64,000 nt of DNA, taken from an uncultured Candidatus Peribacteria bacterium. Lineage in GTDB: Bacteria > Patescibacteriota > Gracilibacteria > Absconditabacterales > Absconditicoccaceae. Within the stretch, counting starts at the first letter, position 1. Each line of letters opens with the position of its first letter. Positions 25,637-63,864 of this stretch are shown piece after piece. The DNA lies in NCBI GenBank assembly GCA_964560855.1, contig CAZLLU010000001.1, positions 17,051 through 81,050 on the forward strand, in the 5' to 3' direction. Position numbers and translations under genes: made by a program. Below the pieces are notes generated by a model. It was not told where the DNA came from. It was given only the letters and a program-made list of their open reading frames with translations, and searched no databases.

Positions 25637-27016
25637 ATGAAAAAAAAATTTCTACGACGGTATTATAAATTGCTCGGAAAATTGGCCCATGGATATATAG
25701 AGAAACACAATCCTCAGATTATCGGAATCAATGGAAGTGTAGGGAAGACCTCCTGTCGTATGATCATCTATCAGACGTTGCAGAGATTTTTGTCGAACAA
25801 GCGTATCTATACATCGCCCAAAAATTTCAATGGCGAACTCGGGATGTCGCTCTCTATTTTCCAGGTAGAGAAACGGGAACCGAATATCCTATATTTCATC
25901 ACAACTCTTTTCAAACTTATCCGAAAAAGATTTTTCTGACCGAAACCTTATGATATCCTGCTTTTGGAATATGGCATCGATCGTCCCGGGGAGATGGACT
26001 TTCTTGTAAGTATAGCTAAGCCACATATCGGTGTATTTACCGCAATTGACTCCGTACATTCAGAACAGTTCGGCAATCCAGCAGAGATAGCCAAGGAAGA
26101 AGTGAAAATGCTCAAGAACACACTGGAAATCTGATTTTTGAATGCAAATGATCCTTATGCAATACAGCTCAAAGATCACCTTTTCATAGATTATCTGACG
26201 TATCAGACGGAAGGCAACGATATTACAGCCGACATTTATTTTAAGGATGAACTCTTCTATCTCGCTGATTTCAAAGGGGGAATCTGAGTACAATTTTCTA
26301 CCCGAATCAAAGAAAAAAAATACGCTGTGAGTACAAATGTACTGAGTAAGGCAAATTATGGTTATATCAGTGTGGCTTTGGCAATTGCTGGAATATTGGA
26401 TTATAAATATGCTAAGCTCGAAGCGAGAGCAGAGGATCCAATTTTAAGAAATGGATCACGTGAGCTTTTGGAAATGAAGTATCAATTGCAGCCAGGAAGA
26501 CTTTCTATCTTTAAAGGTGTCGAAAATAGCGTCATTATAGATTCTACGTACAACGCTTCTCCATTGAGCGTGAAGAAGATCATAAATACTGCACATAATA
26601 TTAAGGCACAATTATTCCCTCAGAGGAAAATTATCCTTGTACTATGAGACATGAGAGAATTGGGCGATCTTACAGAACGCGAACATAGGATGATTGCAGG
26701 GTATGTGTCTCAGGTGGCTGACAAAGTCATTCTCGTAGGGCAGTATATGACCGACTATTTAGCGGATGAATTAGAGAAGGTAGGATTCAATCCTAAGCTG
26801 ATAGAGAAATTCTATGACGCGAATGTCGCAGGTAAACATATCCAGAAACTCCTGAAAGAACCGGGTGACGAATATCTCGTTGTCTGCAAGTGAAGCCAGA
26901 ATACCATCTTCCTCGAGGAAGCGGTAAAGCAATTTCTTCAGAATCCCGAAGACCAAAAAGACCTGACCAGACAGTCAGATCGATGGTTATCTACGAAGAA
27001 GAAATATTTCAAATAA
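25637..27016 (+). CDS. murF: UDP-N-acetylmuramoyl-tripeptide--D-alanyl-D-alanine ligase
   Basis: GINGSVGKTS P-loop, LLLEYGIDRPGEMDFL, IIDSTYNASPLS, VL-G-DMRELG. Pieces 25637-25939, 26327-26647 and 26651-26893 share a frame. TAA stop at 27014-27016. Confidence 0.9.
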
Positions 27017-27110: not shown

Positions 27111-28406
27111 TTATTCCTCTTCCTCCTCAGCCCCTGAGGAGTTTTTTAATAATGGCATGAAGCGGAAATATTCGAGCAATTGGAGCCCGGTGAATCTTCC
27201 TACGAGGATATTCAGTAAAAAAATCAGAATGATAAATTCAGGGAAAGCCAAGAGCAGATGTTTTAATCCTGTTCGATAGAGAAGTCCGTAGACAGAGAAG
27301 GAGACGAGCAAAAATTCTATAAAAGCAACCCATCGACCTTTACTGAAGAGCTTGAATCCTTCATTGAAGACTTTATCGCTCACGAGGGTGATGAATAGTA
27401 TCGGGAATATGATATAACTGTTGGTGAAGATGCTGATATCTATCCGATTTAGTTTGAGTATGCTGTTGAACCCAAAGACCAGGAGTAAGATGAAAAAATA
27501 GAGGATGATGAGTAGTGCACTTTTTGCGTTGTGTAGGAGATACATTTTTTTGGTAAACAAACGTATCAATAATTTTGTAATGAATCAGACAATCAGAAGT
27601 CATAGGCTCAATGGGACTCCGAGGATTGACATCGAGACAGCAAAAAGCAGGGGACTATAGATACCAAATACGGAGAATCCTACAAGTTGTCTGAACATAC
27701 TTATTATCAGCGCACCTAGTGAAAGGACAAGAAACATCGCAATCAGTTCGACAGGGAATCCATGCGCGATGAGACGATCTACGATATATGATATAGGCAG
27801 ATATTTTGGTGTCTCTTGGAATGAGAGGGAAAATGGGGTGATGTATTCTTCATTATTCGTGATTTTTCCCATCGAAAGTGAAGAAAGGAAGTTCAGAAAC
27901 TTATCTTGGGAAAGCGTATATACCTTACTGATCGCTAATGGTTGTACATATTTTGCTAACGTCCTTTTGAGGAAAAATTTGTTGCTGTTGGTGATAAGAT
28001 AGATGGTTTTGTCTTGGAGATTGAGATTGTTCGTGTCTTGTATCTTATCAAATAATTGTAGAAGGACGTCGAATTTCGATGTATTGATGATCAATGTATT
28101 GGTCTCTTGAATTTCATTAATATTGCTCATGATCTTGTTAGTGATCTCATCTTCGGAAAAGTTTTTTTCAGAAATGAAAATCTCCTGGAGTAGCATTCTC
28201 TTTTTATCCAAGTTCTGCTGGAAACCGAGATCGAATGCGTCTCATTGCTCTCCTATATAGATGATCGTGTTTGTGTATCTAATTCATTTTGTCGGAGCAG
28301 CACAATGCGTTTGTCCCTCGCAATCGACCGGCGTGAATTGAGCAGAAACAATAGCAGTAGCGCCAAGAAGTAGGATGAAAGTTATGATAGAGAGAAATTT
28401 TTTCAT
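27111..28406 (-). CDS. Membrane protein: signal peptide, ~200-aa extracytoplasmic domain, polytopic 7TM_transglut-like C-terminal domain; ends SSGAEEEEE
   Basis: ORFs 27600-28211 and 27111-27569 are joined by the TGA at 27600-27602. ATG at 28404-28406. MKKFLSIITFILLLGATAIVSA signal peptide. VGFSVFGIYSPLLFA and GRFTGLQLLEYFRF. TAA stop at 27111-27113. Confidence 0.7.
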
Positions 28407-28468
28407 GAAAAAAAACAGATGATAAATCGCCTGTAGTTAAGTGATTTGAAGAGGGGAATCAAGAGGAT

Positions 28469-30337
28469 TTATTTTTTCTGTTTATTGAGGATCCTTACTG
28501 CTCATAGATTTTTTATGTCTTTTTTCTTAATAGTGATGATCTCTCATCCAGTATATTTTCCGTTGTGTTGTAGTATTACTTTGAGTGTATCAAGATTTGA
28601 ATCAATCACTTTTGCTTTCTGTATTCCATGAGCTGTAGGTATGGATACGATATTCCCTTTTTTCAATAAGTCTCTTGATTTGAGCTTATTCCATTCTCAT
28701 TCTTGGACATATTTTCCTCTATACTTTTTGTAATGGACTATATCAAAAAGACTCACCAAAGCCGCTTTTTCTTCGTTGATATATTCTTGCGTTCCTCTGA
28801 ATCTAAAATCTCATTTTAACAAGTTTTTTTCCTTGTTTGTTATTCCATCCTCATTGATTTTTTCACTGAATGCTCATGCTCATTCCTTAAGTTTTATATG
28901 AAATACTTTATCTACAAGTTTGTTCTGATTGATTCTGCTGGTATCAGTGCCAAGTTTTTGGAAAAGGCTATCTAAGGTAAAAATATCTTCAAAGGAAACT
29001 TTCGCAGACATAGCTTTTCTATAAAAAGCCGCCCTTTCTTCATCATTCGGTAAGGATTTCAAATATTCTACAAGTTTTTTCTCTCCTCTGAAATAGATGA
29101 CATCTTTTCTATTTGATCATTTTTCATCTCGAGGATAATAACATTTCACTCTTTGGGTGAGATTGAATGCTGTTTTGAAAAGTGAAGCTTCTTTTTCTTT
29201 TGTTATTTCTCATGTGACGTTCAATTTTTTCCATGCTTTGAGAAGATGATAAGTGTCTTCAAAATTATAATTTTCACCCATGAAAACCGCTATGAATGTG
29301 TTGCTAGGAATGAGCGGATATTCATCCAATGAATATTTCAATAATCATTCGTTGAGCTTGGTTATCCCTTCTTCTATATCTTCATATCATGGTCAAGCTA
29401 TGATCATTCCATTTTTTTCTTGGTTGTCTGATCTGACCATATGTCCACCATCTTCATGGCCAATAGTTGTGAATATTTTGTTGAAAAGATCTTCGTCTTT
29501 GTCTGGATATTCACGGATTTTACTAGAAAAAGGAGTAGAATATCATGTCTTTCATTTTTCTTGTTTCTGAGGTCGTTGGCTGATAACTGGATAAAAATGC
29601 TGTTTGATATGTTCAGTCCCTTTCATGATATCTGACATGGGAAGATTTCCTCTTGCAGGAAGTTTTTTCTTATCTTGAGCGACTTTATTAGTGATGCTTT
29701 CTTTGAAGGTGTCGAGGAAAGAGGAAAATAATCTATTCTCTGTTTCGGTCAGTTTGTCTTTGTTTTTTTTGTATGATGCATTGCACATGGATAGGATAAT
29801 TTCTTTCTCATCAGGGCAATCGCTTATTTTCGGACCATACACTGCTGTTTGGAGCGTATCAATCTCTTTGAGATATAATTGTTTATTGTTTTCATATTCG
29901 GTTCATAATCATATTTTATGCAGCTTTTCTGGATTTTTTTTGAGTTCAAACGTGGATCAGGAAAAAATGATGTCATATCCGGACTTTTCTGCTTCAAACC
30001 ATGCAGATCTTTTGGCAATTTCCGCTTTTTTACTACTTTCATCAATCCTTTTGATAAGGAAATGTTTGAGATCACTATCTAAGTCGTTATCATTTTCTAT
30101 ATTGTAGCGTAAATCATGAATATCTTGCAGGACTGATTCGATAAGAGAAATCCTTTCTGCTATATCATATGAAGAGAGAGATTCTTTGTTCGGAAAAAAT
30201 TTACTGGAGAGATAATTCATATATCAATCCAATCATTCAGATTTTTGCTTGATATAGCTCAAACTCCCTCATAACATCCCAGTGAGCTTTTCGCTGGATT
30301 GGTGTACAAGTTCAGCATAATTGCGATACTTTTCCAT
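28469..30337 (-). CDS. DUF1704/MATCAP-like predicted metallopeptidase, 622 aa (HExxxH)
   Basis: ORFs 29957-30220, 29552-29842 and 28880-29062 share a frame, and every gap codon was read. IGHEDGGHMVRS ... GITKLNE-G-LLKYSLDE. An extra C-terminal region of about 100 aa follows. TAA stop at 28469-28471. The start at ATG 30335-30337 is tentative. Confidence 0.6.
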
Positions 30338-30369
30338 ACAGAGAGATATACAGTAAAATCTACTGCATA

Positions 30370-30933
30370 TTATATCTTTTTCTTTGTGATTTGTCAAAAA
30401 TCTTCTTTTAGTAATCAATAGAGAAATGCATCATAATATGCATCTTGTTTCTTTGAAAAATATAAGTGCCTAGCTAGTCATTCACGGACAAATCAGAGCC
30501 TTTCTGCTAATGCAATCGATGATGTGTTGTCTGTCCTTATTCGTGCTTGTATTCTTTGGATACCTGTGTCGTGGAATAGATAAGATAATATAGCATGTAA
30601 CGCTTCAGTCATTAGTCATTTTCATTCATATGTTTTTCCTAATCGATATCATACATTTGCCTTTCAATGCTTTTTGCTGATTTTTTTTAATACGACAGAT
30701 CAGATGACTTCTTCTGTCTCTGATAGGGCAAGCATCCATCTTATCATTTTACCCTTGCGTTCTTTTGATTCGCATGATAAGGTATATGCTTCTATTTCCT
30801 TTGGATCGCTTGGTAAATTGATAAATGTCTTTATCTTTTTTTCTTTTAGAAGGGCACTTAGCGTAGGAATATCATATTGTATCATAGGTCTGATAATCAA
30901 ACGATTAGTCGATAATGTTATCCCCATAAGCAT
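30370..30933 (-). CDS. GNAT-family N-acetyltransferase (RimJ/RimL-like)
   Basis: LSTNRLIIRPM...ANV-G-YRLGKTYE-G-K-G-LMTEA...IQARIRTDNTSSIALAERL-G-FVRE-G. TAA stop at 30370-30372. Confidence 0.75.
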
Positions 30934-30969
30934 AAAAGAAAGAATAAAAATAAATATTAAGCGATGGTA

Positions 30970-32070
30970 TTAAATATAAAGTATGATTTCAGCAAGACGC
31001 TGTATCGGATCTTTGGTCCTAAATGAGTGTATAATTTTCTCATATCCTATTTGGTAAAGCAATTCTTTGGGATAAAGATATCTGTGCTGAGAGAAGGGAA
31101 GGAATTTAAAAAATCTGTAATAAAGATTATTGATCTCCTGATCGTCTGTATATCACAATGTTGCACATATTTTTTTCACGAGAAGATGGTTTTTGTATGG
31201 AATGTTAGTGCCTTTATCGAGGAGCTCTTGATACATATAGCTATATTTTGGAAAATAGATGTGTTGTAATGATATGCTGTCCAAAGAGCATGCTTCTATG
31301 TTTTCAAAAAGATTGTAGGCAAAAAAATTAGCTGCTCATTCATTATACGTATGAAGAGTGAAATGTTCTTTCTGTATTGAAAAAATCTTTCTAACCATGA
31401 CATGCAAGAGGTGCGTGCACTCATGATAAAATGTTGTTTTTTTCTTTGAATTCATATACATAACTATCTTGTTGTTTTTGATTTCTACAAAAGAGCTATT
31501 TTTTTTCTGGTACATGACGGTGAATGTGTAGTTCTGTAATTCTTTTTGGAGCTTGTTTTTTTCTTTTCTATGTCAGGTCTTTACTAGGATATGGAAAATA
31601 AAGGAGAAAAACTTATTGAACATATCTTCAGGCGAAGTGAATGTTTGTGTATTGTATCACATATATGTATCCTTGTTCTTCATATATTTTGAAAGTGATG
31701 TCTTTTTGATGTCGCGATGATACTGTATTTTGTAGAGTGAATTGAAAATCGAGATAATCTTTTTGTTGGTAGCTTCATTGGAGGGGATCTTTTTTTTAAA
31801 GAGTTTCCCTTCAACCTCGTAATCATATGCCAGTATTAATAATTCTTTTATCAATGGTGAGTCGAAGAGATGATCGCTTGATGATGCAATGATACGTTTA
31901 GCCTCTGATTTGGAAAGCTGTTGCATCAACAGAAAAATATCTTTTGCTTTTTTGGGTGTGAGGTCGGTTTCTGTTTTTATCAGATTAAAATAATATCAAA
32001 AGAAAAAAAGATAATTTTTTAAAATCATATTGTCTTGGAGTGGATAATAGGTGTAATTCAATCCAATCAT
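30970..32070 (-). CDS. Predicted zinc metallopeptidase (HExxH; Peptidase_MA-like), 366 aa
   Basis: FYHECTHLLHV followed 26 aa later by YNE-G-AANFFAYNLFE. The start ATG overlaps the upstream stop (TAATG at 32068-32072). TAA stop at 30970-30972. Confidence 0.55.
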
Positions 32071-33377
32071 TACTCTGTCTTGATGATAGTAAAGTATTTA
32101 CCTTCAATAAATTCAAAATCTTTTTTGAATTGATGAATATCATTATTGGCCAATTCTATGGATCACACCTTGCCATATCAATCACGAGTCAATCATATTT
32201 GTGCTCATAGAATTTTAATTCATGGGTTCATCCTGTGAAAAGAGGGGAGCTGTTTGATGCTATCTATTATATCCTGATGGTATCCATTAAAGATTGATTT
32301 TTGCTTTGGGTATAAAGCAAACAGGGCTACATTCTTTTTGAGAGGGAATATGCTTTCTCTAAGGTCTTGAAATGGAAATCTCAAAAGATTGATATCGTAT
32401 CCTATCTGATACATATCTAGTCTGAATCATCATATTCTTCAATTTATCTCTATGGTTTTCATATCTCATTTTGTATTTATTTTGAATTCATGATGGACAA
32501 AGGTGTTCCTGATCTTTCATCCTAGAACAGTTTTTTTTACAAAATCATAAAGTTTGTTATGATCGACTTCTTCTTCTACCTCTTGGGATATTGTCCTTGA
32601 TATGTTGCAAAAATCGTCGATATTGTGATCTATTCATAATTTGACGAAAACGGGTTTTGATAAGGTAATATTTTGATCTTCATCAACATAATAATCCACG
32701 GTATACATTTTTCCATCAATAAACTCTTCGACTAAGATGGATTGGTCAGTTAGTTTTTTGTTTGCTAACATTATAAATGCATTGGTTGTAATGCTAAGCG
32801 CATTTTTATATTCTTCGAAATTGTGTATTTTGCACACTCAACTGCTTTGTACTCCTCCTGTGGGTTTTACGATACATGGAAATGGAGGGAGATCTTTTTC
32901 TGTGATCGTTTTGGCCTCTTCTATATCGAATTTTCTATATTGTACGATAGTCTCTGGATATTGTTTTCATATGATTTCTCTTTGTAGATATTTGTTCAAA
33001 AAGATGCCAGGATTATCAGTGACTTTTTGTCATAATATAGCCCTGATTTTGTTGGTAAAAAGTATTTCTTGTTCTTCAAACGTATTTATGAAAATCTTTC
33101 ATGATAATGATTGAAGATGTGATATAATCTCATTTCCATCGGTGAAGCCGATTATTTTGACGCCTATATCGTTTATCCCATCAATGATGTCTTGCGTAAG
33201 CTCTACTAAGGGGTCTTCTTCATAAAAATAGAGGATGGATACACCATTTGCTTGTAAATCATTGAAGCTCTTTTTGTAATAATCAAACTTATTGAGCTTA
33301 AAAAGACTTTTCTTTGAATAAAATCCTATGAGATGCATTGTTTTTTTGCTAATGAAGTAAAAAAATTCACTAATCAT
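32070..33377 (-). CDS. ATP-grasp ligase (L-amino-acid-ligase / CPSase-like subtype), 435 aa
   Basis: ORFs 33099-33377, 32634-32837 and 32220-32414 share a frame. PCIVKPT-GG-VQSS-G-VCKI, VEEFIDGKMYTVDYY, HHEFKINTK-G-D, IEIN-G-RI-GG-F. An alternative start exists at 33338. TAA stop at 32070-32072. Confidence 0.7.
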
Positions 33378-34282
33378 TTACATATTTCTGATAGTTTTTG
33401 CTTGTCGGTCTGATAATACCGCGTTCCAGGAGATGCATTTATTTCCAATAGATATCGTTTTTTTTCTGGATTACAATAAGAGAAATCCATAGACATGATA
33501 TCGTTTCCGGAAAGATTCATGGAACGATATATTTTTCTCGCTAAAGACAATAGCTCTTTAGGTAATGAATCTCACGGTAAAGGGACTTGTTGTCATCAGG
33601 ATCAGATATTGCTTCTAAAGTCTCATGTTTTAGGCGTCCTTAATGTCGTCTCTATGATTTTTTTTCAAGCAAACATGAGTCTGATGTCATGGATTCATGT
33701 ACAGATTCATGGATATCATTTACTGAAATCTTTGAACTCTTGGACAATAAAAAGCTCTTCCAATCAAATATATTCGTCTTTTTTTCAGATAATATCCTGG
33801 GGAGTAGTGAGCACTATTCACTTTCCTCAATTGGCCCTGATAGGTTTGAGAAGTATCTTGTCTGAAAATTGCTCTTGAAGAGATGCTTTTGCAAAAAAAG
33901 TAGAAAGTAGACAAGATAATGGTTGATGCTTATAGGCAAATTTATAGATTTCAAATTTATCATTGCTCATTGTTGATATTTTTTGGGAGGGGACCGTGGA
34001 AAAATCTTGTAATACATCGTATTTGTAGGTTACAAATGCTCATCTCCTTGACCGAATGATGTCAGGAATAAATTCTTTTTTTATGGTTTTTGCTTTGCCA
34101 TGTGCATCGAAGATAGCATACTCGTCAAATGATTTGCGTTTAGAAGAAAAGTGATTTATACTTACTCTTACTAATTCTATGCCATGTGCAAAAAAAAATT
34201 CTTGCATAAAAAATTTCGCTCAATATTCGTCCTTACCTTTGTATGTTCATGTATAAGAATTTTCTATCGCTATTTTTAGCAT
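33326..34282 (-). CDS. ATP-grasp ligase (RimK / glutathione-synthetase-like subtype), 318 aa
   Basis: This gene is invisible in the standard-code track because it has more than 15 in-frame TGA. LLKPIRAN-GG-K-G-IVL, IVQEFKD, IHDIRLMFA-G-KKI, T-G-DFRSNI-G-S-GG-QQ, LLEINASPG. TAG stop at 33326-33328. Confidence 0.7.
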
Positions 34283-34295
34283 ATATAAGATTGTA

Positions 34296-36755
34296 TTATA
34301 CAATAAAACATACATCATTTATTTTTATTTTGCCTTTATATATTCTGTCTGTAGATTCTCAATCTTTCATTCGTTTTTTTACCATGTCGTATCATTCCAA
34401 GTAGATCTTATCTTTTATAAAAACAGTTCCCTGGTGCTTGATAGATGTGTGCTCTATTCCTTTTTTGATTCTCAAGACTCATTTGAAGAGTCTTTCTATG
34501 TCTTTATCCGGATTAAGAAAGCTGAGTAATTCGAATGTTTTCCTGAAGTCACGATTCTCAGACTCTTTGACGAGATAATATTTCTTATAAATACTATCCT
34601 TCTCATATTCTTCAGGTAATATCTTACTTGCATTGTAGATAGCTAATCCCTCTTCATCCTTGAGATAATTCGCTGTCCCTGATTTTAAAATATTCCATCC
34701 AGATTTTAGTCAGTTCAGATGCCTAATGAGATGAGTATCTATTTCGTGGGCCAAAACAGAAAGTAATTCTTTTTCTCTGAATATTCCGTGTTTTGAAATA
34801 CTGATTTTGATTTGTTTTCCCATAATTACTGATATCCTTGAGAGATTTGTATAACTAAAAACAATATCCACTCCGTAGATTTTTTTCTCTGCAAGATATT
34901 TTTCGATGGTTTTTTCTATTTCTGAAAGCGTTAGTGGCTCTCCCAAAAGCTTTTGATTATCTTGATTGAGACTAAATACTTTTTCTTTGGATATTTTCAA
35001 TAGTTCTTCATCGAAATCACCAAATAGCTTTTTGTTGTATAACGCGATGTTTTTAAAGTCTTGTTTGCTGTAAGCGAGGATGAGACATCTTCTCTGTTCC
35101 AGTTCTTCCAGTTTCTCTACGAAAATTTTAGCAAAAGGGCTTTTGAATTTGGCTAATTGTTTTTGAAGCTTATCTATCGCTATTTTAGTCTCCAATAATT
35201 TTTCTTCCTTTGGTCGTTTGTATTGGAAAACAGGATTATATTTCCCCTGAAGAGTGATAAATTTATCCAGTTCACTGAAATAGTTGGTGGGTCTTAATCT
35301 AGCGGAAAGATTCAATCTTTTACTGATTTTCTCTATCTTTTTGTCGATGGCATGGAGCTCATTGCTTTCAAGCTTATCCAGATATTTTGGCTGTATGATG
35401 TCCACTATTTCATATGTCTTATGGATAGGTTTAACGAGATAATTGCTCGCAGTCTTGTTTCCAAGTATGATCTTGTTTTCAGGAAGATTTTCAAGGATGG
35501 AAAACTTGGATTTTTTGAGCACAATCTCATTTTCATAGAGATCCAGATATCGTTCTCTTTTGTTCTCTTTGATTTTGTCGAATAATTTTTGGGACATATA
35601 ATTCCCCAATCTATTAAGATCGACTTCGACGACAATATCTATTTTTTCTTCTTCTTCCTTTTTTTTGATGATGAAATTCGCGTATTGAGAGAGATAGAGT
35701 ATTTTAGAACCTAAAAGGTCATATTTTTCTGGGCTAAAAAGACTTTTCGCTATTTCTACGCCCTTTTCGGGATCGGAGACTTTGAGATCTTCTATCTTAT
35801 TTAGGATATTTTTTAGTCTTGTGTCAGTGACTTTCTGTACCTCTAAACCGGCTCTTGCATTGATTTCCAATAATTTCGGACCCTCGTTGGTGATGACCCG
35901 GTCGAGCGCGAGATATCCGAGATTGACGAAATATTGTACTTTCGATGAAAGGAAAAGTATGTCGTTCCGATAAGGAATCTTTTTGTTTTGAAAATGTGCG
36001 AATCTTTTTGGAAATCTGGTTTTGTAGATTTTTTTCTTCCGGAGTAGGGAAGTGATCTTGCCGCTTCAAACTTCGATTCCGAATCCGAGTCATCATTGTG
36101 CGAGATTCGCTTTGCCTCACGATTCTTTTGTCGGTACTCTGATCATAGTAGCGACGGGGACGAGATTGAAAACAATAATTCTGATGTCCGCCAGTCAGAA
36201 TTCGCAGAAATCCTTGAAAAGCTCTCCAGCAATGAGTTTCTCTTCGATGATAATCTTATCGCTACCGAGGGTCATGGAGTATTTTCCATCGAGGATATCA
36301 AGGAGGCGCCTTCTGAATTCCTGGTCAGTGAGGATTTTATCTCATATCTGATAGGTTCAAGAATGCTGGTGATCTTCAAACCTTTGAAAAAAAGCCTTTT
36401 TGATTATGTTTCATCGCTGTCTGAGTTTGTTGGATGCTACTGTTTCCCTTTTTGGCATATCTCCTTCTGGCTGTTCTTCGGGAATATATTTGACGATATA
36501 GACTCCTTGTCCTTTGCTTCATTGATTCGGTTTCACGACGAAATTCTTTTTGGGGAGATAGGAAAAATCAAACTCATAGAGTTCTTTACGACTAGAGATG
36601 ATGCCGTAAGTCTTGGCGAACGGGATACCTCTTTCTATAAGAAAATCTTTCGTCTGGAGTTTATCGTTAGCTAGACGAATGCCTTTCTTATGATTGAACT
36701 TCTTGATATAGAGGAGGTTCCTAGCATTGTTGCCGAGGATCCCGGAATCGAACAT
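34296..36755 (-). CDS. Fusion protein: alpha-L-glutamate-ligase-like ATP-grasp (N) + DUF1704/MATCAP-like QEGLA-motif peptidase domain (C), 819 aa
   Basis: ORFs 36519-36755 and 34710-35870 share a frame. I read every codon from 35871 to 36518 and from 34296 to 34709. The N-terminal part carries GILGNNARNLLYI, VVKPNQ-G-SKGQGV, S-GG-KANLAQ-GG-LGFGIEV and LLEINARAGLEVQ. The C-terminal part carries LAHEIDTHLIRH and KDEEGLAIYNA. Confidence 0.75.
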
Positions 36756-39878: not shown

Positions 39879-41519
39879 TTATGGTGCTGATGATATTTCA
39901 CCAGTCCAAATTTCTATAGCTCATGAGAGGGGAATGTGTGCGAGGACATACATCCCTTTTTTTGTTGCTTCAGAAAAGTATTGATCAAACAAAAAATTTC
40001 ACAGACTATAGATGATAGGTTTTCCCTGATATCGTTGAATGTCTTGAATGACGTGCGGATGATGTCCTATGATAATATCGGCTCAGCAATCAATAAGTTT
40101 TTTTCCGATATTTTCTTGTAGGATATTGTGCGTAGTTTGATATTCGGTTCCTCGATGAATGCTTACGATATTTTTGTATCATAATGTTTGGTATTTTTTG
40201 AGATCATCACAATAATCTTCTATATCACCAGAGAATCTGTTGTATAGGTTATATGCATGAAGCGCGAGAGGTATGCCACGGATAGTTTTTGTGAGGACTG
40301 TATTTTTGTTGATTCATTTGAAGTGTGTCCATCCAGCATAGGAGATATTTTGCTCTTGTAAGGTATGGATGGTTTGCATATATCACTCTTGTCAGTCGTC
40401 TCGAGCATGATTGTTGGCAATGGTTACCGTATCAAATCACAGTGATTGAAGCGTTCAAAGGATCGTTCATGAAGAACAGAAAGAAATACCATTAGTATGA
40501 TGCGTACAATTTTCATCGACTCGTGGTGTTTCTAGATTGAAACCAAGGAGATCCAAACCAAATCATTTCCTGTGAATATTGGTTTTGGGATTCAATACTA
40601 TATTTCATTGCTGATACCGATCTTGGAAATGCTGCTGTATTTTTTCTGGCGTATCCAATATCGATTTGACTCATCTATCAAAGATAAGATCACCAAAAAA
40701 TCAAAGCACTATCCCATTATCTTTATTGCATCCTCCCGTATAGAGAATGAATGCTCTAGAAGTATTTTCTTTCCCTAAGTCTTTCCCTACAATAGTGCTA
40801 CTAGAATCTCTTTTGAGAAGCCATGGATATTGTCTTTTGGTTTGTGCTCGAGTATTTACCAGATATAAACAAGTTGGACAATCGACTTCTATTGTAGTAT
40901 ATTCTTTTTGTGTCCGAGCATTCACCAACGTATAATAACTTTTGAGATCGTGGACGTATGCTCGCTGCTCTGATGTATAATGGGAAAAATCTACAGAAGC
41001 TATCACCAGAAGGTTATTGTTTTTTTCTAATTGATGTATTCTTTTAGCGAGTATATCCAGATTGCTGAAATCTCTTGGTGAGAGTTTGATGAACGATATA
41101 CTTGCTTGAGGGAAATATTTTTTCAGAAAGGGAAAATGAGCTCATCGTCCATGTTCTTTTATTCGTTTGTCAGGATATTTTTCTTGATCTGAAATATAGA
41201 TTGCATGAATGGGTAAACAAACCCCTTGGAAACAAATTGTCGTATCTATGATGTTTTCATAAAGATTATTCGTTCATTTATTAAAATGATCAGGACTGAT
41301 AATTACTATTTGTAATGACTTTCCCGAAAGATTATAGGTATCCAAGATATGTTTGTAGGCACTATCTATGGTAGGAGGTTGTATCGCGAAATGGGGGAGT
41401 ATAGCGAAATAGGTCTGATAATTTTTTTCTGGTATCGTTCTCGTATAGAAAAAACATACACTTATGCATCCACAGATGAATAGTCATGAGAAAAAATATT
41501 TCCGATAATGTTTGTGCAT
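39879..41519 (-). CDS. Fusion: N-terminal TM anchor + Memo-like (AmmeMemoRadiSam system protein B-like) domain + CapA/PgsA-family metallophosphatase-like domain, 546 aa
   Basis: VIISPDHFNK, IKEHGRGAHFPF and IASVDFSHYTSEQ in the Memo-like part. TVTIANNHARDD-G-QE-G, IHRGTEYQ, CGADIIIGHHPHVIQ and IIYSL-G-NFLFDQ in the CapA-like part. The frame was read codon by codon from 41519 to the TAA at 39879-39881. Confidence 0.7.
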
Positions 41520-41531
41520 ACGTGATAGGTG

Positions 41532-44054
41532 TTATTTCTGAAGTATCTTTTGGAGTGGTAAGGTGATAATCTCATCTTGTTTTGCAGCATCAAGTCACGC
41601 TCTTCGCTCTTCATCGGTATACCTTCATTTTTCTCCAGTAATTGCATCATCACTACCATAAAATTCAAATGTACTATATACAGGTCATATTACTGCTCTT
41701 GCACCATTAGCATCTTTGATATTAGCGATCAAAAGATACGGTCTTCCATTGGCAATATAGAGAGGACCATTTTTTTCTGAAGTGAATATATCTGCAATTA
41801 GTGCAGAGATGAAATCGTTATCACCGCCATCTATGACTTTTTGAGGATACAAGATACTCATGAGCTCATCATAATAGAGTCTCAATGTTTCATAGTCATC
41901 ATCACTGATAATTTGGTTGCTGCTTTCTTTGATAGCCATGTTTTTTACAAAAAGAAGGAAATCGTTAAAAGGTTCAAATGAAGCATTATCTCCAAAAAAT
42001 TGCTTAGTTTGTTCAGTAAGCGTGAGTAGCTCATCGACAAGATCAATATTAGGTTCTACATATCCTTTGGGTACAGGAAGTGCAGGAGGATTGATAATTA
42101 CACTACATTCATCTTCTCATCACATTCCCCGCTCGGCATACGCTTGTTTGACATATAGGAGGGTATCGTGTTTTAGTTCAGTATAATTTCACTGGAATGT
42201 ATTTAATTCTTTATATTTCCAAAGAGGGTCTTGCATGAAATAAGGGAGGTTATTACCAGAAAGCGCAAAAAGCCATCATAAGTCATTGAGCCATTGATGA
42301 TAGGTAGAACGAGAGAAATCGTGATTGAATATACCGCTTTGTGCTTCTTGTTTTGCTTTGCTATATCAATCGATTTGCGTTGATGTTACTTTATATTTGT
42401 TTTGTGCTTTTTGCATCCATATATCGACAAGATCTTGTATAAATCCGCTATTCACTAATCCATCCGGTACGATCAATGATGTCTGTACGTTAGGTTTGTA
42501 GGTAAATTCTTTCTCTGCTGTACCAGCTGTCATACGATCAAATATCCAACTATCGATAGTGAATTTTTCTCCGAAAAATACGAATCCCGCTGTTTCATCT
42601 TTTGCTTCTTGTTCAGTCACTGAGAGTATTTCTGGTGTTTGGTAATGGGTCGAAACGATCCTTTGTGGTCTGAGTTTTTTGAGCTCTGATTGGGTATTTT
42701 CTGAAACACTGTCAATGATATTCATATCTGATTTCCATCACGCTGTTTGTATGAAATCTTGGATATCCTTGATATTTACATCATCATCTTCACCTATGAG
42801 TTTTTGTATAGCATCATAGAGTTGAGAAAAACTTGTTAATTCTTCATTTTGAATATTATTGATCATAACGAGTGATGCTTTAGTTTGTTCGCTATCACGG
42901 AAGTAGAGTTTTTCTCTCATAAACCATTTCATCCCCATAAAATAGGTTTTGAGAAGACTACTTTTGGTGTAATGAGATCTTGGAGTAAATTGTGTATAAT
43001 CTTGTTGAATATCTATTGCTTCAGAGTTTGTTCCTGCAAGAGTAATAAGAAGAGGATCTTTTTCTCTTGATTGATCTGCTGCAAATATATTTTGTAAGGT
43101 TGTTTTTACTGCTTCTTGATAAAAGGTTGGAATCTTTGATTCAATGTTAGCAAGTTTTTGTAAACTAAGTGCTTTGATTTCTTCATTAGTTAAATCTGTT
43201 TCATCTGATGTGCTATTTTGCATTTTTTGATCTAGAGCAACCATGACCTCATCTTGAGGAACTAATAAGGTATATGGGATAGCTCGATATGCAGTAGCAT
43301 ATGCATAGTAAGGAGCTAATGCTGTATCTTTGTTTTGTTGATAGAGATTTGAAAACTTGGAAAACATAGATTCACTCAAATCTACCATAATAGTTCTTGC
43401 TGTGCTTTCTTCATAAAATCTTAAGGCGTTAGAGAATATCTTATGATAGAAATGTAATAGCATATCAGTGGTTACAAAAATGGTATTGTAGGAGAATCTT
43501 TGATAGTCTTGAGGCAATCCACCTATTTTTTGATAATAGAGTCCTCGTTCCTCTTGCATGAGCATTGGATTGTCAGCAGTCCGCATATTTCGATTTTCCC
43601 CAGGGTTGAAGATCAATCGTCCATGGTCATTCAGAAATGATTTTTGTGTCTCAGTAAGTGAAAAAGAAAGTCATCATCAGTTATATGCTCCAGTGATTTC
43701 GATATTACCTTTGTTAAGGTCGTTTCGAGATACCTTTTTATTGAATCATTGGCTGGTAGTGAGGGTTATGGTATCACATTGTTTGAGTGTTTCTACGCGT
43801 GATGGATCTATATCTTTTTCTCCTATGATTTTTTTTCGTGGCTGCTGAAAACCATTTTGCATACTTTCTAGATTTGTAATTTCTTTCATATCTGGCTTTT
43901 CCATTTTCCGTGTGAATGGATATTGTGATATTTTCCCTGACAACAATGCTGATCATGTGCTTAGTGATGTATTTGATATCGGTGTGCTCACCTGAGTACA
44001 TCATCCTAAAAAACACAAACATCATACCAATAAGAGCAATCATGTCTTTTTCAT
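41532..44054 (-). CDS. DUF3160-family lipoprotein, 840 aa
   Basis: MKKT-G-LLLLV-G-CLCFL-GG-C lipobox. FTPRSHYTKSSLLKTYFMGMKWFMR. ORFs 43746-43946, 42738-43616, 42366-42725 and 41685-41939 share a frame. TAA stop at 41532-41534, 12 nt before the next gene's start. Confidence 0.75.
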
Positions 44055-62500: not shown

Positions 62501-63772
62501 TTAGTCTTCAAGGTAGTCATCATCATCGAATCTACTCATGTAATCATCTTCTTCGTTTTCATAATCATCCATTTCATCTTTTGATTTTCTTCATTTCTTT
62601 CTCTTTTTTCCGTCTCAGGCTTCAAGTTTAGCGATATCATCTTCGATTCCAAGTATTTTTTGTAATCCAGCGTGCTCTTTGAGCTTTTGGATGACTTTCT
62701 GTTCGATCTGTCTAACTCTTTCTCTCGTGACATTAAATTCCTCTCAGACTTGTTCCAATGTATATCTCGGTCCATCGATTCCATATCTCATTTTTACGAT
62801 CTTTGCTTCTCTGTCGTCGAGCATACCCAAGATCATATCAAGGTTCTTTCTTAGGGCATTTTTTTCGGCGAATTGATCAGGTCTCAAAGTATTTCCATCT
62901 TCGATGAGATCGGCGAGTGTATCCCTTCCTTCATCTCCGACTTCTCTATCCAATGAGACGTTTCCGAAGATGACTTCTTCCAACTTCTTAATCTTCTTGA
63001 TAGGAAATCATAGCTTTTGTCCTATCTCCTTGGAGGTCGGCTCTCTTCCTAATTTCTGGAAGAGTAACTGATAGGTCTTGTTATATGAATTGATTTCGTC
63101 AATCAAATGCACAGGTATCCTTACGTGTTTCGTCATGTCGGCGATTGCTTTTGTAATCGATTGTTTGATCCACCGTGTCGCATATGTAGAGAATTTAAAC
63201 TCTTTATCTGGATCGAATTTCTCTATTGCTTTGATAAGTCCGATATTTCCTTCCTGGATTAGATCGGAAAAACTCAGTCTTGATCAGAAGAATCTCTTTG
63301 CGATACTGATGACCAATCTTAGGTTTGATTCGATCAACCTTTTTTTGGCTTCTTCATCTCATTTTTTTATCCTTTTGGCGATATCTCTTTCCTCTTCGGA
63401 ATTCAATAATGGGATTTTGGATATTTCATTGAAATAGAGCTTGATGAAATCTTTATGCTGAGATTCGGAAACGTTTTTCTGGGTATCATAGAGTTCTATT
63501 TTCCCGAGTTTGCTCTCTTTTTTTGCTTCTTCGGCTTCTTTTTCCAAGACTTCCTCGATGGTAATGATCTTGATACCGAGCTTGTCCGCGAGTTCGTAGA
63601 ATTTCTCTATCATCTTGACGCTGAGATCCATATCGTCTACGTCTGCGATTACGTCTTCTTCATTGATAATGCCTGTTTCGAATCCATTATGCAGGAGTTC
63701 CTGTAGTGGTTTGCTGAGCTCACCGATATCGTCCTGGAAACTATCCCGTAATTGCTTCTGAAGTTTCTGCAT
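62501..63772 (-). CDS. rpoD: RNA polymerase sigma factor RpoD (sigma-70)
   Basis: [68 protein letters not shown]. Acidic C-terminal tail. TAA stop at 62501-62503. Confidence 0.95.
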
Positions 63773-63836: not shown

Positions 63837-63864
63837 TTGACATTTATAATAAAATATGTATAAT
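63837..63864 (+). promoter_or_regulatory. Consensus-like sigma-70 promoter facing right
   Basis: TTGACA (63837-63842), a 16-nt spacer, then TATAAT (63859-63864). Confidence 0.45.

Follow-up and report, generated by a model that had tools for sequence, protein, structure and literature searches.

A putative ligase–carboxypeptidase fusion and its oligoglutamate-ended membrane partner in an Absconditabacteria operon: a candidate system for reversible C-terminal tailing

The operon described here, seven minus-strand genes (g1 to g7, numbered 5' to 3') at positions 27111–36755 of a 64,000-nucleotide stretch of GenBank contig CAZLLU010000001.1 (positions 17,051 to 81,050 of the contig; hereafter the window), has its closest known counterparts in RloABC and RimK–RimB. 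What is new in it is a substrate hypothesis centered on the oligo-Glu C-terminus of the membrane protein g7. Gene contexts that combine ATP-grasp ligases with seven-transmembrane (7TM) proteins were reportedly first described by Iyer et al. in 2009 using comparative genomics; our literature search, which did not cover that description, found nothing on this operon in Absconditabacteria or on Glu tails of 7TM_transglut proteins. RloABC of Pseudomonas aeruginosa is a genetically known case in which an ATP-grasp ligase, a 7TM_transglut protein and a peptidase are associated (PMC11957051 / PMC12239564). RloA, a secreted paralogue of RimB encoded in the rloABC operon, cleaves runs of at least eight glutamates, and the authors of that study, who found no substrate, suggest a post-translationally polyglutamylated target (PMC11957051). 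Systems made of an ATP-grasp ligase, a 7TM protein and a peptidase are widespread and affect osmotic tolerance, antibiotic resistance and biofilm (PMC11957051), and proteobacterial relatives of the 7TM protein are linked to envelope and osmotic phenotypes (PMC11957051, PMC12096838). In the other system, RimK adds Glu to ribosomal protein S6 at its C-terminus and RimB trims it; the only proteins known to be polyglutamylated in bacteria are S6 and the Legionella effector target SdeA (PMC11957051).

The window has a G+C content of 36.5% and uses genetic code 25, in which UGA encodes Gly. With TGA read as a stop (table 11), positions 27111–36755 break into at least 30 short open reading frames (ORFs), whereas stopping only at TAA and TAG yields seven long minus-strand ORFs that fill this interval, and long ORFs likewise cover the rest of the window. 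A first-pass annotation, made from the letters and their ORFs, had described seven co-directional genes that overlap or lie within 62 nt of each other, and we reproduced its coordinates under code 25. Gaps measure 13 nt (g1–g2), 36 nt (g4–g5), 32 nt (g5–g6) and 62 nt (g6–g7); g2 and g3 overlap by 52 nt, or by only 13 nt if g3 begins at Met14 (33338), where its homologues start; and g3 and g4 overlap by 1 nt in a TAATG stop/start that we verified at 32072 to 32068, as first reported. The operon contains the following features:

34296–36755, minus strand: g1, 819 aa, RloC/TIGR02291-like ATP-grasp ligase fused to a MATCAP/DUF1704 carboxypeptidase (both predicted)
35790–36722, minus strand: g1 ATP-grasp ligase domain, aa 12–322 (Pfam ATPgrasp_ST, 6e-41)
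34308–35264, minus strand: g1 MATCAP/DUF1704 gluzincin domain, aa 498–816 (Pfam MATCAP, 9e-16)
34731–34748 and 34647–34655, minus strand: g1 motifs HEIDTH and EEG, coordinates verified by translation
33326–34282, minus strand: g2, 318 aa, RimK-like ATP-grasp ligase (Pfam RimK, 2.5e-11; GSH-S_ATP, 7.6e-7)
32070–33338 (ORF to 33377), minus strand: g3, ~422 aa from Met14, ATP-grasp_4 ligase (Pfam ATP-grasp_4, 2e-21)
30970–32070, minus strand: g4, 366 aa, orphan family, candidate zincin peptidase (HECTH, 31411–31425; NEG, 31336–31344)
30370–30933, minus strand: g5, 187 aa, RimJ/RimL-type GNAT (Pfam Acetyltransf_3, 4e-29)
28469–30337, minus strand: g6, 622 aa, divergent DUF1704/MATCAP-like gluzincin (HEDGGH, 29441–29458; EEG, 29366–29374)
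27111–28406, minus strand: g7, 431 aa, signal peptide, ectodomain, 7TM_transglut domain and predicted cytoplasmic tail
28341–28406, minus strand: g7 signal peptide
~27201–27758, minus strand: g7 7TM_transglut domain, aa 223–419 (Pfam, 2e-11; 44.2 bits versus a cut-off of 25)
27114–27128, minus strand: g7 C-terminal EEEEE, proposed to serve the ligases as acceptor or primer and the carboxypeptidases as substrate

Pfam and NCBIfam matches bore out the compact unit that the first-pass annotation had proposed, with three ATP-grasp ligases, one of them fused to a DUF1704 domain, together with a GNAT and a 7TM_transglut protein; at the level of single translations, g1, g2, g3, g5 and g7 matched families directly, but g4 and g6 did not. 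Its claim that the locus is native was also upheld. Each of the seven genes carries 4–19 in-frame TGA codons, and in the N-terminal domain of g1 three of eight aligned TGA positions correspond to Gly in a standard-code homologue (36% overall identity). More than 120 full-length homologues of g1 were found (46–98% identity; RAAC1_SR1_1, Vampirococcus and Absconditicoccus among them), every organism-naming source being Absconditabacteria/SR1, and homologues in Gracilibacteria are ~40% identical. At sites of UGA-Gly in this genome, W appears in many of the database homologues, a sign that some public pipelines translate under code 4.

The first gene was confirmed by Pfam and NCBIfam matches as a RimK-related, alpha-L-glutamate-ligase-like ATP-grasp domain fused to a DUF1704 domain. 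Residues 12–322 score above the Pfam cut-off for PF14397 ATPgrasp_ST (140.9 versus 31.4 bits) but below the NCBIfam cut-off for TIGR02291 (E = 1e-51; 175.8 versus 314.2 bits), and g1 is probably best described as a member of the ATPgrasp_ST domain family, not as a certified RloC orthologue. The C-terminal domain, with HEIDTH and DEEGLA, exceeds the cut-off for PF08014 MATCAP/DUF1704 (58.2 versus 27 bits) and falls below that for TIGR02421 ('QEGLA'; E = 5e-21; 75 versus 339 bits). The combination of HExxxH and EEG is the hallmark of MATCAP/TMCP, carboxypeptidases that shorten acidic tubulin tails, deglutamylation included (PMC10499314). In 22 diverse homologues, H670, E671, H675, D700, E701 and E702 of g1 are invariant, as are the ATP-grasp residues (for example, K75, D285, E297, N299 and R301).

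The last gene, g7, had been read as a signal peptide, an extracytoplasmic domain and a 7TM_transglut domain, and the Pfam match and hydropathy agree on this. Based on hydropathy and the positive-inside rule, the predicted topology consists of a signal peptide, an outside domain and seven transmembrane segments with K/R-rich loops inside, and the C-terminal tail is therefore predicted to be cytoplasmic. The 194-aa ectodomain had no significant family match and no transglutaminase match at E up to 0.1. Across all 66 loci examined (499 unique proteins of at least 150 aa), EEE formed the C-terminus of all 16 distinct g7-like proteins in g1 loci compared with none of the 483 other proteins. The run is EEEEE in the window and EEE in most other g7-like proteins; it is kept down to 28% identity, and the linker that precedes it varies. 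When we searched 1.84 billion cluster representatives exhaustively with the TGA-free C-terminal 152 residues of g7, all 40 complete C-termini at ranks 1–40 ended in EE (35 in EEE), followed by 30 of 37 at ranks 41–80.

A hairpin with an 8-bp stem (CTCCTCAG-CCC-CTGAGGAG) followed by TTTTTT on the plus strand lies at 27123–27151, within the last g7 codons, where it encodes SSGAEE and LKN of g7; it looks like an intrinsic terminator for a convergent MurF-like gene, embedded in the coding end of g7. The EEE end as a by-product of this hairpin (27123–27141) was ruled out, the tail being conserved at the protein level across taxa with differing linkers.

To place the operon in a wider context, code-25 ORFs were called on 65 related loci, a metagenome scan by alignment being among the sources, and compared with g1–g7. 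The same seven-gene order occurred in one relative, L066 (54–77% identity for g1–g7), and in L067 the genes are rearranged, g1 being followed by a 159-aa protein with weak GNAT likeness and then by g6, g3, g4 and g7. The seven-gene combination that the first-pass annotation had singled out thus recurs, but it is not a conserved unit, its middle genes are swapped elsewhere and the full set is limited to a subclade. What does recur across Absconditabacteria and Gracilibacteria is the linkage of g1 and g7: in Gracilibacteria, a g7-like gene (28–31% identity to g7) lies directly 3' of a g1-like fusion, and in SR1 the two genes lie within one operon. Among the 27 loci in which the sequence downstream of g1 spans 6 kb or more, 16 had a g7-like gene, a count that speaks of nearby g7 genes only, g1-only loci having been viewed as 22-kb excerpts. 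The conserved core is g1 plus g7, with g6-like and g2-like genes frequent, and g3, g4 and g5 are accessories of the subclade.

This core resembles RloABC in having a cytoplasmic ligase of the ATPgrasp_ST/TIGR02291 type (RloC, similar to the g1 N-terminal domain), a 7TM_transglut membrane protein (RloB, similar to g7) and a peptidase in the same operon. Two defining features set the operon apart from that system. RloABC has a secreted retropepsin, whereas here a cytoplasmic MATCAP/DUF1704 zinc carboxypeptidase appears fused to the ligase, and none of the seven genes matched a retropepsin or Zn_protease family in Pfam or NCBIfam (RloA belongs to PF05618); in addition, RloB has a periplasmic inactive transglutaminase domain that g7 lacks. 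The operon also has two more ligases, two more peptidase-like proteins, a GNAT and the conserved oligo-Glu end of g7. The earlier statement that the combination had not been characterised should accordingly be qualified, since the core association of ATP-grasp ligase, 7TM_transglut protein and peptidase is known from RloABC (PMC11957051). The parallel with RimK–RimB (with RimA) lies in an ATP-grasp alpha-L-glutamate ligase that extends the acidic C-terminus of S6 and a physically associated peptidase that trims it, so that the tail is reversible. There, the peptidase is a separate retropepsin, whereas here a predicted metallo-carboxypeptidase is fused to the writer, and the proposed substrate is an operon-encoded membrane protein. 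Both g1 and g2 miss the RimK equivalog cut-offs and, overall, the operon misses every equivalog cut-off (TIGR02291, TIGR02421 and RimK).

The first-pass annotation had offered two alternatives, a free peptide or poly-amino acid that is built, trimmed and exported, or a reversible tailing cycle on the C-terminus of a protein. We lean towards the second, at slightly less than an even chance, because a candidate protein substrate was found in the oligo-Glu C-terminus of g7, the only protein in g1 neighbourhoods with a suitable end. The operon would then encode a writer/eraser system for reversible C-terminal glutamylation and trimming of g7. Insertion of the 7TM protein would leave its N-terminal domain outside and expose the encoded ...EEEEE-COOH end to the cytoplasm. 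The ATP-grasp domain of g1 would lengthen this tail by ATP-dependent addition of Glu, or a similar residue, to the C-terminus, as RimK does on S6; the fused MATCAP-type domain would remove residues from the same end; and tail length would reflect the balance of the two activities. The g2 and g3 ligases and the peptidase-like g6 and g4 proteins may add and remove further residue types, varying by lineage, and the g5 GNAT would be a lineage-specific accessory outside these steps. In the two-gene systems of Gracilibacteria, each part would have a role as substrate, writer or eraser. The g1, g4 and g6 proteins have no signal peptide (N-termini read by eye). We infer the role of the g7 tail as acceptor, the kind of residues added and the effect of tail length on the 7TM protein.

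Where the ligase may act is indicated by two standard-code loci in which the 7TM protein and the ligase are a single polypeptide:

L062, 3521–5950, plus strand: fusion of transglutaminase-like, 7TM_transglut and ATPgrasp_ST domains, confirmed by Pfam
L061, 1851–4460, plus strand: fusion with the same architecture, judged by reading the sequence

The 809-aa L062 protein, encoded in the standard code, comprises Transglut_core, 7TM_transglut (aa 322–523) and ATPgrasp_ST (aa 537–805) domains, so that the full architecture missing from g7 is seen there, and both fusions appear to correspond to RloB fused to RloC. The 7TM part of L062 aligns with g7 residues 216–420 and the ligase starts 13 residues further on, where g7 has its 11-residue Glu tail, which suggests that the 7TM protein's cytoplasmic C-terminal end is where the ligase acts. 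The gene that follows in L062 encodes a 620-aa protein with seemingly TPR-like repeats (by eye), and glnE lies upstream.

Also counted in favor of C-terminal tailing of g7 are the extra ligases of related operons, which resemble the G domain (5e-94 and 7e-62) or the M domain (3e-44) of cyanophycin synthetase. At a C-terminal primer, CphA1-type enzymes lengthen acidic chains or decorate them. CphA1 itself, which joins an ATP-grasp G domain to a Mur-ligase-like M domain, extends an acidic chain at the C-terminus of its primer, and in related operons a G-like or an M-like ligase occupies the slot that holds g3–g5 in the window. Thus, L003, L010 and L054 carry g2, a G-domain-like ligase (5e-94) and a g6-like gene, with a YdjC gene as well in L003; the RAAC1 operon carries a RimK-like ligase and an M-domain-like Mur ligase (3e-44); and L008 carries three other ATP-grasp ligases and a g6-like gene. 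The G-domain-like ATP-grasp proteins matched TIGR02068 (5e-94 and 7e-62) and TIGR03103 (9e-62). The cyanophycin-synthetase-like pieces are located as follows:

L003, 13385–14347
L008, 12480–14420
L010, 10989–11987 (assigned by Pfam and similarity to L003)
L001, 13346–14596

In contrast to CphA1, the modules are split in these relatives, stand-alone G-domain-like and M-domain-like pieces never occurring together in any SR1 locus seen; the window has no CphA-like gene and there is no cyanophycinase.

A more specific form of the reading, which we hold with slightly less assurance, is a tubulin-code-like cycle in which g1, as single writer–eraser, lengthens and shortens the primed oligo-Glu end of its 7TM partner and lineage-specific ligase/peptidase pairs add marks. 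The likeness would be mechanistic, at the level of enzyme classes: in the tubulin tail cycle, too, ATP-grasp TTL/TTLL enzymes are paired with MATCAP/TMCP (PF08014; HExxxH and EEG) and CCP carboxypeptidases, the C-terminal tails are Glu-rich, and several writers and erasers differ in residue specificity. Here, however, the system is bacterial and operon-encoded, writer and eraser lie in one polypeptide and there is no tubulin.

If C-terminal tailing of g7 is correct, g7 would be the first polyglutamylated bacterial membrane protein and would point to a specific candidate for what Rlo-type systems act on, and the bacterial relatives of the tubulin detyrosinase MATCAP would gain a functional context. 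These MATCAP/DUF1704 proteins, hitherto annotated by analogy to the tubulin enzyme, now stand beside RimK-type ligases as a predicted writer–eraser fusion. The oligo-Glu end is strictly conserved, is predicted to share its side of the membrane with the ligase and stands at the position of the fused ligase in other bacteria; this makes the substrate hypothesis directly testable, and the synthetic peptide FRFMPLLKNSSGAEEEEE was considered as a model acceptor, as an alternative to the g7 C-terminal domain. The organisms are uncultivated, recoded episymbionts with small genomes in which few accessory systems are kept, and the conservation of g1 across the order therefore suggests an important role.

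Several observations weigh against this reading. The L061 and L062 fusions leave the 7TM part without a free C-terminus, so that tail acceptance would not be a general mechanism of the wider family. Only 20 of the 66 complete C-termini at ranks 81–150 of the g7 search ended in EE, and basic ends were also found among the most distant proteins. No g7 adjoined g1 in 11 of the 27 loci, Vampirococcus included; seven of the 11 form one closely related group. In the non-recoded bacterium of L070 (226–7164, plus strand), a PKD-domain 7TM_transglut protein is followed by an ATPgrasp_ST ligase, three RimK/GshB/Ddl-like ATP-grasp ligases and a class A penicillin-binding protein, and multi-ligase versions thus exist outside candidate phyla; yet this 7TM protein, adjoining four ligases, ends in ...AEKK. 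The polyglutamate-cleaving RloA of P. aeruginosa is periplasmic, which suggests an exported product there (PMC11957051). The acidic tail could merely dock the ligase or serve some other purpose, and the peptidase nature of g4 is unproven.

Part of this evidence feeds the main rival, that the ligases make a free acidic oligopeptide or poly-amino acid (for example, poly-alpha-glutamate), which is handed to the 7TM protein. We consider it unlikely on balance. In this reading, the DUF1704-type carboxypeptidases would limit the length of the product or recycle it, the 7TM protein would export it or link it to the envelope, and the only role of the g7 Glu tail would be to dock the ligase or to prime the first round. 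In vitro, free poly-alpha-Glu is a product of RimK (quoted in PMC11957051). The rloA1-3 defect is suppressed when rloB or rloC is lost, in keeping with an exported product that is toxic, the periplasmic RloA cleaving runs of at least eight Glu (PMC11957051). Envelope phenotypes are linked to relatives of the 7TM protein (PMC12096838), the 7TM–ligase fusions couple the two functions without a free 7TM C-terminus, and the 7TM protein of L070 with its ...AEKK end stands beside four ligases. The variable operons with two to four ligases, including CphA-like G and M modules, also resemble biosynthetic clusters. A free product, however, leaves unexplained why, in 40 of 40 close clusters, the 7TM protein ends exactly in EE or EEE despite linker drift. 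A ligase-fused carboxypeptidase would destroy a product that is free in the cytoplasm, the peptidases here all lack a signal peptide, unlike RloA, and 7TM_transglut proteins have no demonstrated transport activity.

A variant of the free-product explanation concerns the GNAT-bearing subclade, where the product could be an N-acetylated peptide like N-acetylaspartylglutamate (NAAG) or N-acetylglutaminylglutamine amide (NAGGN). Synthesis and turnover of the NAAG type involve RIMKLA/B, NAT8L and GCPII, and the operon shares with such pathways the co-occurrence of an N-acetyltransferase, RimK-family ligases and metallo-carboxypeptidases. A GNAT plus an ATP-grasp domain is also the make-up of N-acetylglutaminylglutamine synthetase, whose family TIGR03103 is the one matched at 9e-62 by the CphA-G-like ligases of relatives. 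The GNAT here, in contrast, is RimJ/RimL-like, restricted to a subclade and missing from most relatives; there is no amidotransferase, and the conserved partner is a Glu-tailed 7TM protein.

That another acidic-tailed protein is tailed, for example S6 as in RimK–RimB, with the 7TM protein as regulator or membrane anchor, we regard as improbable. Both g2 and the g1 N-terminal domain are RimK relatives, RimK–RimB is the sole proven bacterial ligase/peptidase pair of this kind (PMC11957051), g5 resembles the ribosomal-protein acetyltransferases RimJ and RimL, and in 11 of 27 loci g1 has no adjacent g7. Against this, no other protein of the 66 loci examined has an EEE end, g1 has the 7TM protein, not a ribosomal gene, for its conserved partner, and all RimK-type equivalog cut-offs are missed widely (g2 scores 29 versus 331 bits for the S6--Glu ligase). 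The gene for S6, rpsF, is not among the annotated genes of the window.

A role in cell-wall or surface-polymer chemistry, in which an acceptor related to peptidoglycan or linked to a polysaccharide receives amino acids from the ligases and the 7TM protein takes part in translocation, is just as doubtful. The Pfam name ATPgrasp_ST stands for 'sugar-transfer associated', and suggestive neighbours occur: a YdjC-type enzyme in the Absconditicoccus operon, a PG_binding_3 protein after g1 in Vampirococcus, a PBP1 gene beside the L070 operon and, in the window, the MurF-like gene convergent to g7 and a PGA_cap protein at 39879–41519. These neighbours are not conserved between loci, though, the MurF-like gene lies on the opposite strand and looks like a housekeeping gene, the operon has no glycosyltransferase or flippase, and MATCAP-type enzymes are known only as carboxypeptidases of protein and peptide C-termini (PMC10499314). 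The MurF-like gene (25637–27016) was ruled out as a part of the system: it is convergent to g7 and scores as MurF (5e-52), whereas the Mur ligase inside the RAAC1 operon is cyanophycin-synthetase M-like. Finally, modification of a ribosomally made precursor peptide (RiPP/graspetide) was ruled out, since no spacer exceeds 62 nt and the loci compared share no conserved partner in the form of a short ORF, in line with the first-pass report, which saw no small precursor-peptide ORF in the spacers.

Among the remaining genes, g2 exceeds the Pfam RimK cut-off (44 versus 21 bits) but stays below those of TIGR00768 (32.8 versus 143.4 bits) and PRK10446, the S6--Glu ligase (29.4 versus 331 bits); it appears to be a RimK-like ATP-grasp protein and not RimK. 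Its orthologues in L003, L010 and L066 are 54–56% identical. The g3 protein matched NCBIfam PRK07206 (1e-14), and its homologues align from aa 14. It adjoins g4 in the window, L066 and L067; the two genes travel together and are translationally coupled in the window. The g5 protein is above the cut-off for PF13302 Acetyltransf_3 (102.5 versus 25.4 bits) and below those for NCBIfam RimJ (2.8e-14; 53 versus 190 bits) and RimL (7e-13; 48.5 versus 184 bits). It is a lineage-specific accessory gene, present in L066 and missing from the other loci, apart from a weakly related protein of 159 aa in L067 (33% identity over 51 aa).

Three zinc peptidases had been proposed; the C-terminal domain of g1 is certain and g6 is likely of the DUF1704 type, but g4 is a candidate by motif alone. 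The g6 protein scored 12.5 bits against Pfam MATCAP PF08014 (cut-off, 27; E = 0.069) and had no other direct family match, and none of the 24 database homologues in its family carries a Pfam domain. Comparison of family profiles with hhalign nonetheless aligned the g6 family with the C-terminal domain of the g1 family (probability 86%, E = 5e-6, 201 columns), with HExxxH, EEG and R-x-K...KD-IY in the same register; H294, E295, H299 and E323 of g6 are invariant and E322 nearly so. We conclude that g6 is likely a divergent DUF1704 relative, shown only by profile–profile comparison. The earlier assignment as DUF1704-like stands on this basis, although the motif is HEDGGH...IEEGIT and not 'NEGL'. 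A PDB sequence search with the g6 profile gave nothing at E up to 1.

Homologues of g4 number ten, eight from databases and two found beside g1-like genes; H216, E217, H220, N243 and E244 are invariant in all ten sequences, and the invariant motifs of the family are HExxH, NEGxANF and RFFKF...YPKE. No Pfam match was found for g4 even at E = 10 and no NCBIfam match; a link to PF13485, suggested at first pass, was not recovered in the Pfam search. By hhalign, the g4 family showed no significant relationship to the g1 and g6 families (probability <1%). AlphaFold2 (AF2) models were made on close database homologues, P0146 for g4 and P0123 for g6. The model of the g4 homologue (predicted local distance difference test (pLDDT) score of 84) gave weak Foldseek matches in the PDB, many of them zincins, the best being M32 carboxypeptidase (E = 0.05), which was also the best match for the g6 homologue (pLDDT 78; E = 0.04, not significant). 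Nothing reached significance against the PDB for either model and MATCAP structures were not among the matches, so this fold evidence is suggestive, and g4 is best regarded as a candidate zincin peptidase. The g6 model also showed an all-beta C-terminal module (aa ~536–604; 28469–28730, minus strand) with weak Foldseek likeness to Sm/Hfq, SH3-like and KapB small barrels; this extra module is confined to the g6 subclade of the window (~620 aa), other g6 proteins being 520–560 aa long.

Beside g1 in L011 (12524–14182, plus strand), a 552-aa protein with HEIATH...LEEGIAKLNE, which BLAST had missed and which has kin in L017, L024 and L053, appears to be another g6/DUF1704-like protein. In this L011 group (52% identity), the protein encoded ahead of g1 shows a uracil-DNA-glycosylase-like motif by eye, and there is no nearby 7TM gene.

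Within the operon we identified one candidate promoter:

30369–30397, minus strand: TTGACA-17-TATAAT, a perfect match to the sigma-70 consensus, 32 nt upstream of where g6 starts

Its -10 box overlaps the g5 stop codon. Perfect sigma-70 consensus sites occur twice in the window compared with 0.05 expected by chance, and this one suggests an internal promoter from which g6 and g7 may also be transcribed on their own. The second perfect site (TTGACA-N16-TATAAT; 63837–63864, plus strand) lies downstream of a minus-strand ORF (62501–63772), and its target is beyond the window. An Rfam scan of the entire window (1–64000) returned no family at gathering score. Upstream of g1, an 840-aa DUF3160 lipoprotein-like protein (41532–44054, minus strand) is followed by the PGA_cap protein (39879–41519, minus strand), whose 546 aa include both a Memo-like region and a PGA_cap (CapA-type poly-gamma-glutamate capsule) domain. 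Judged by length and position, an 840-aa protein is similarly placed upstream of g1 in RAAC1 and L010.

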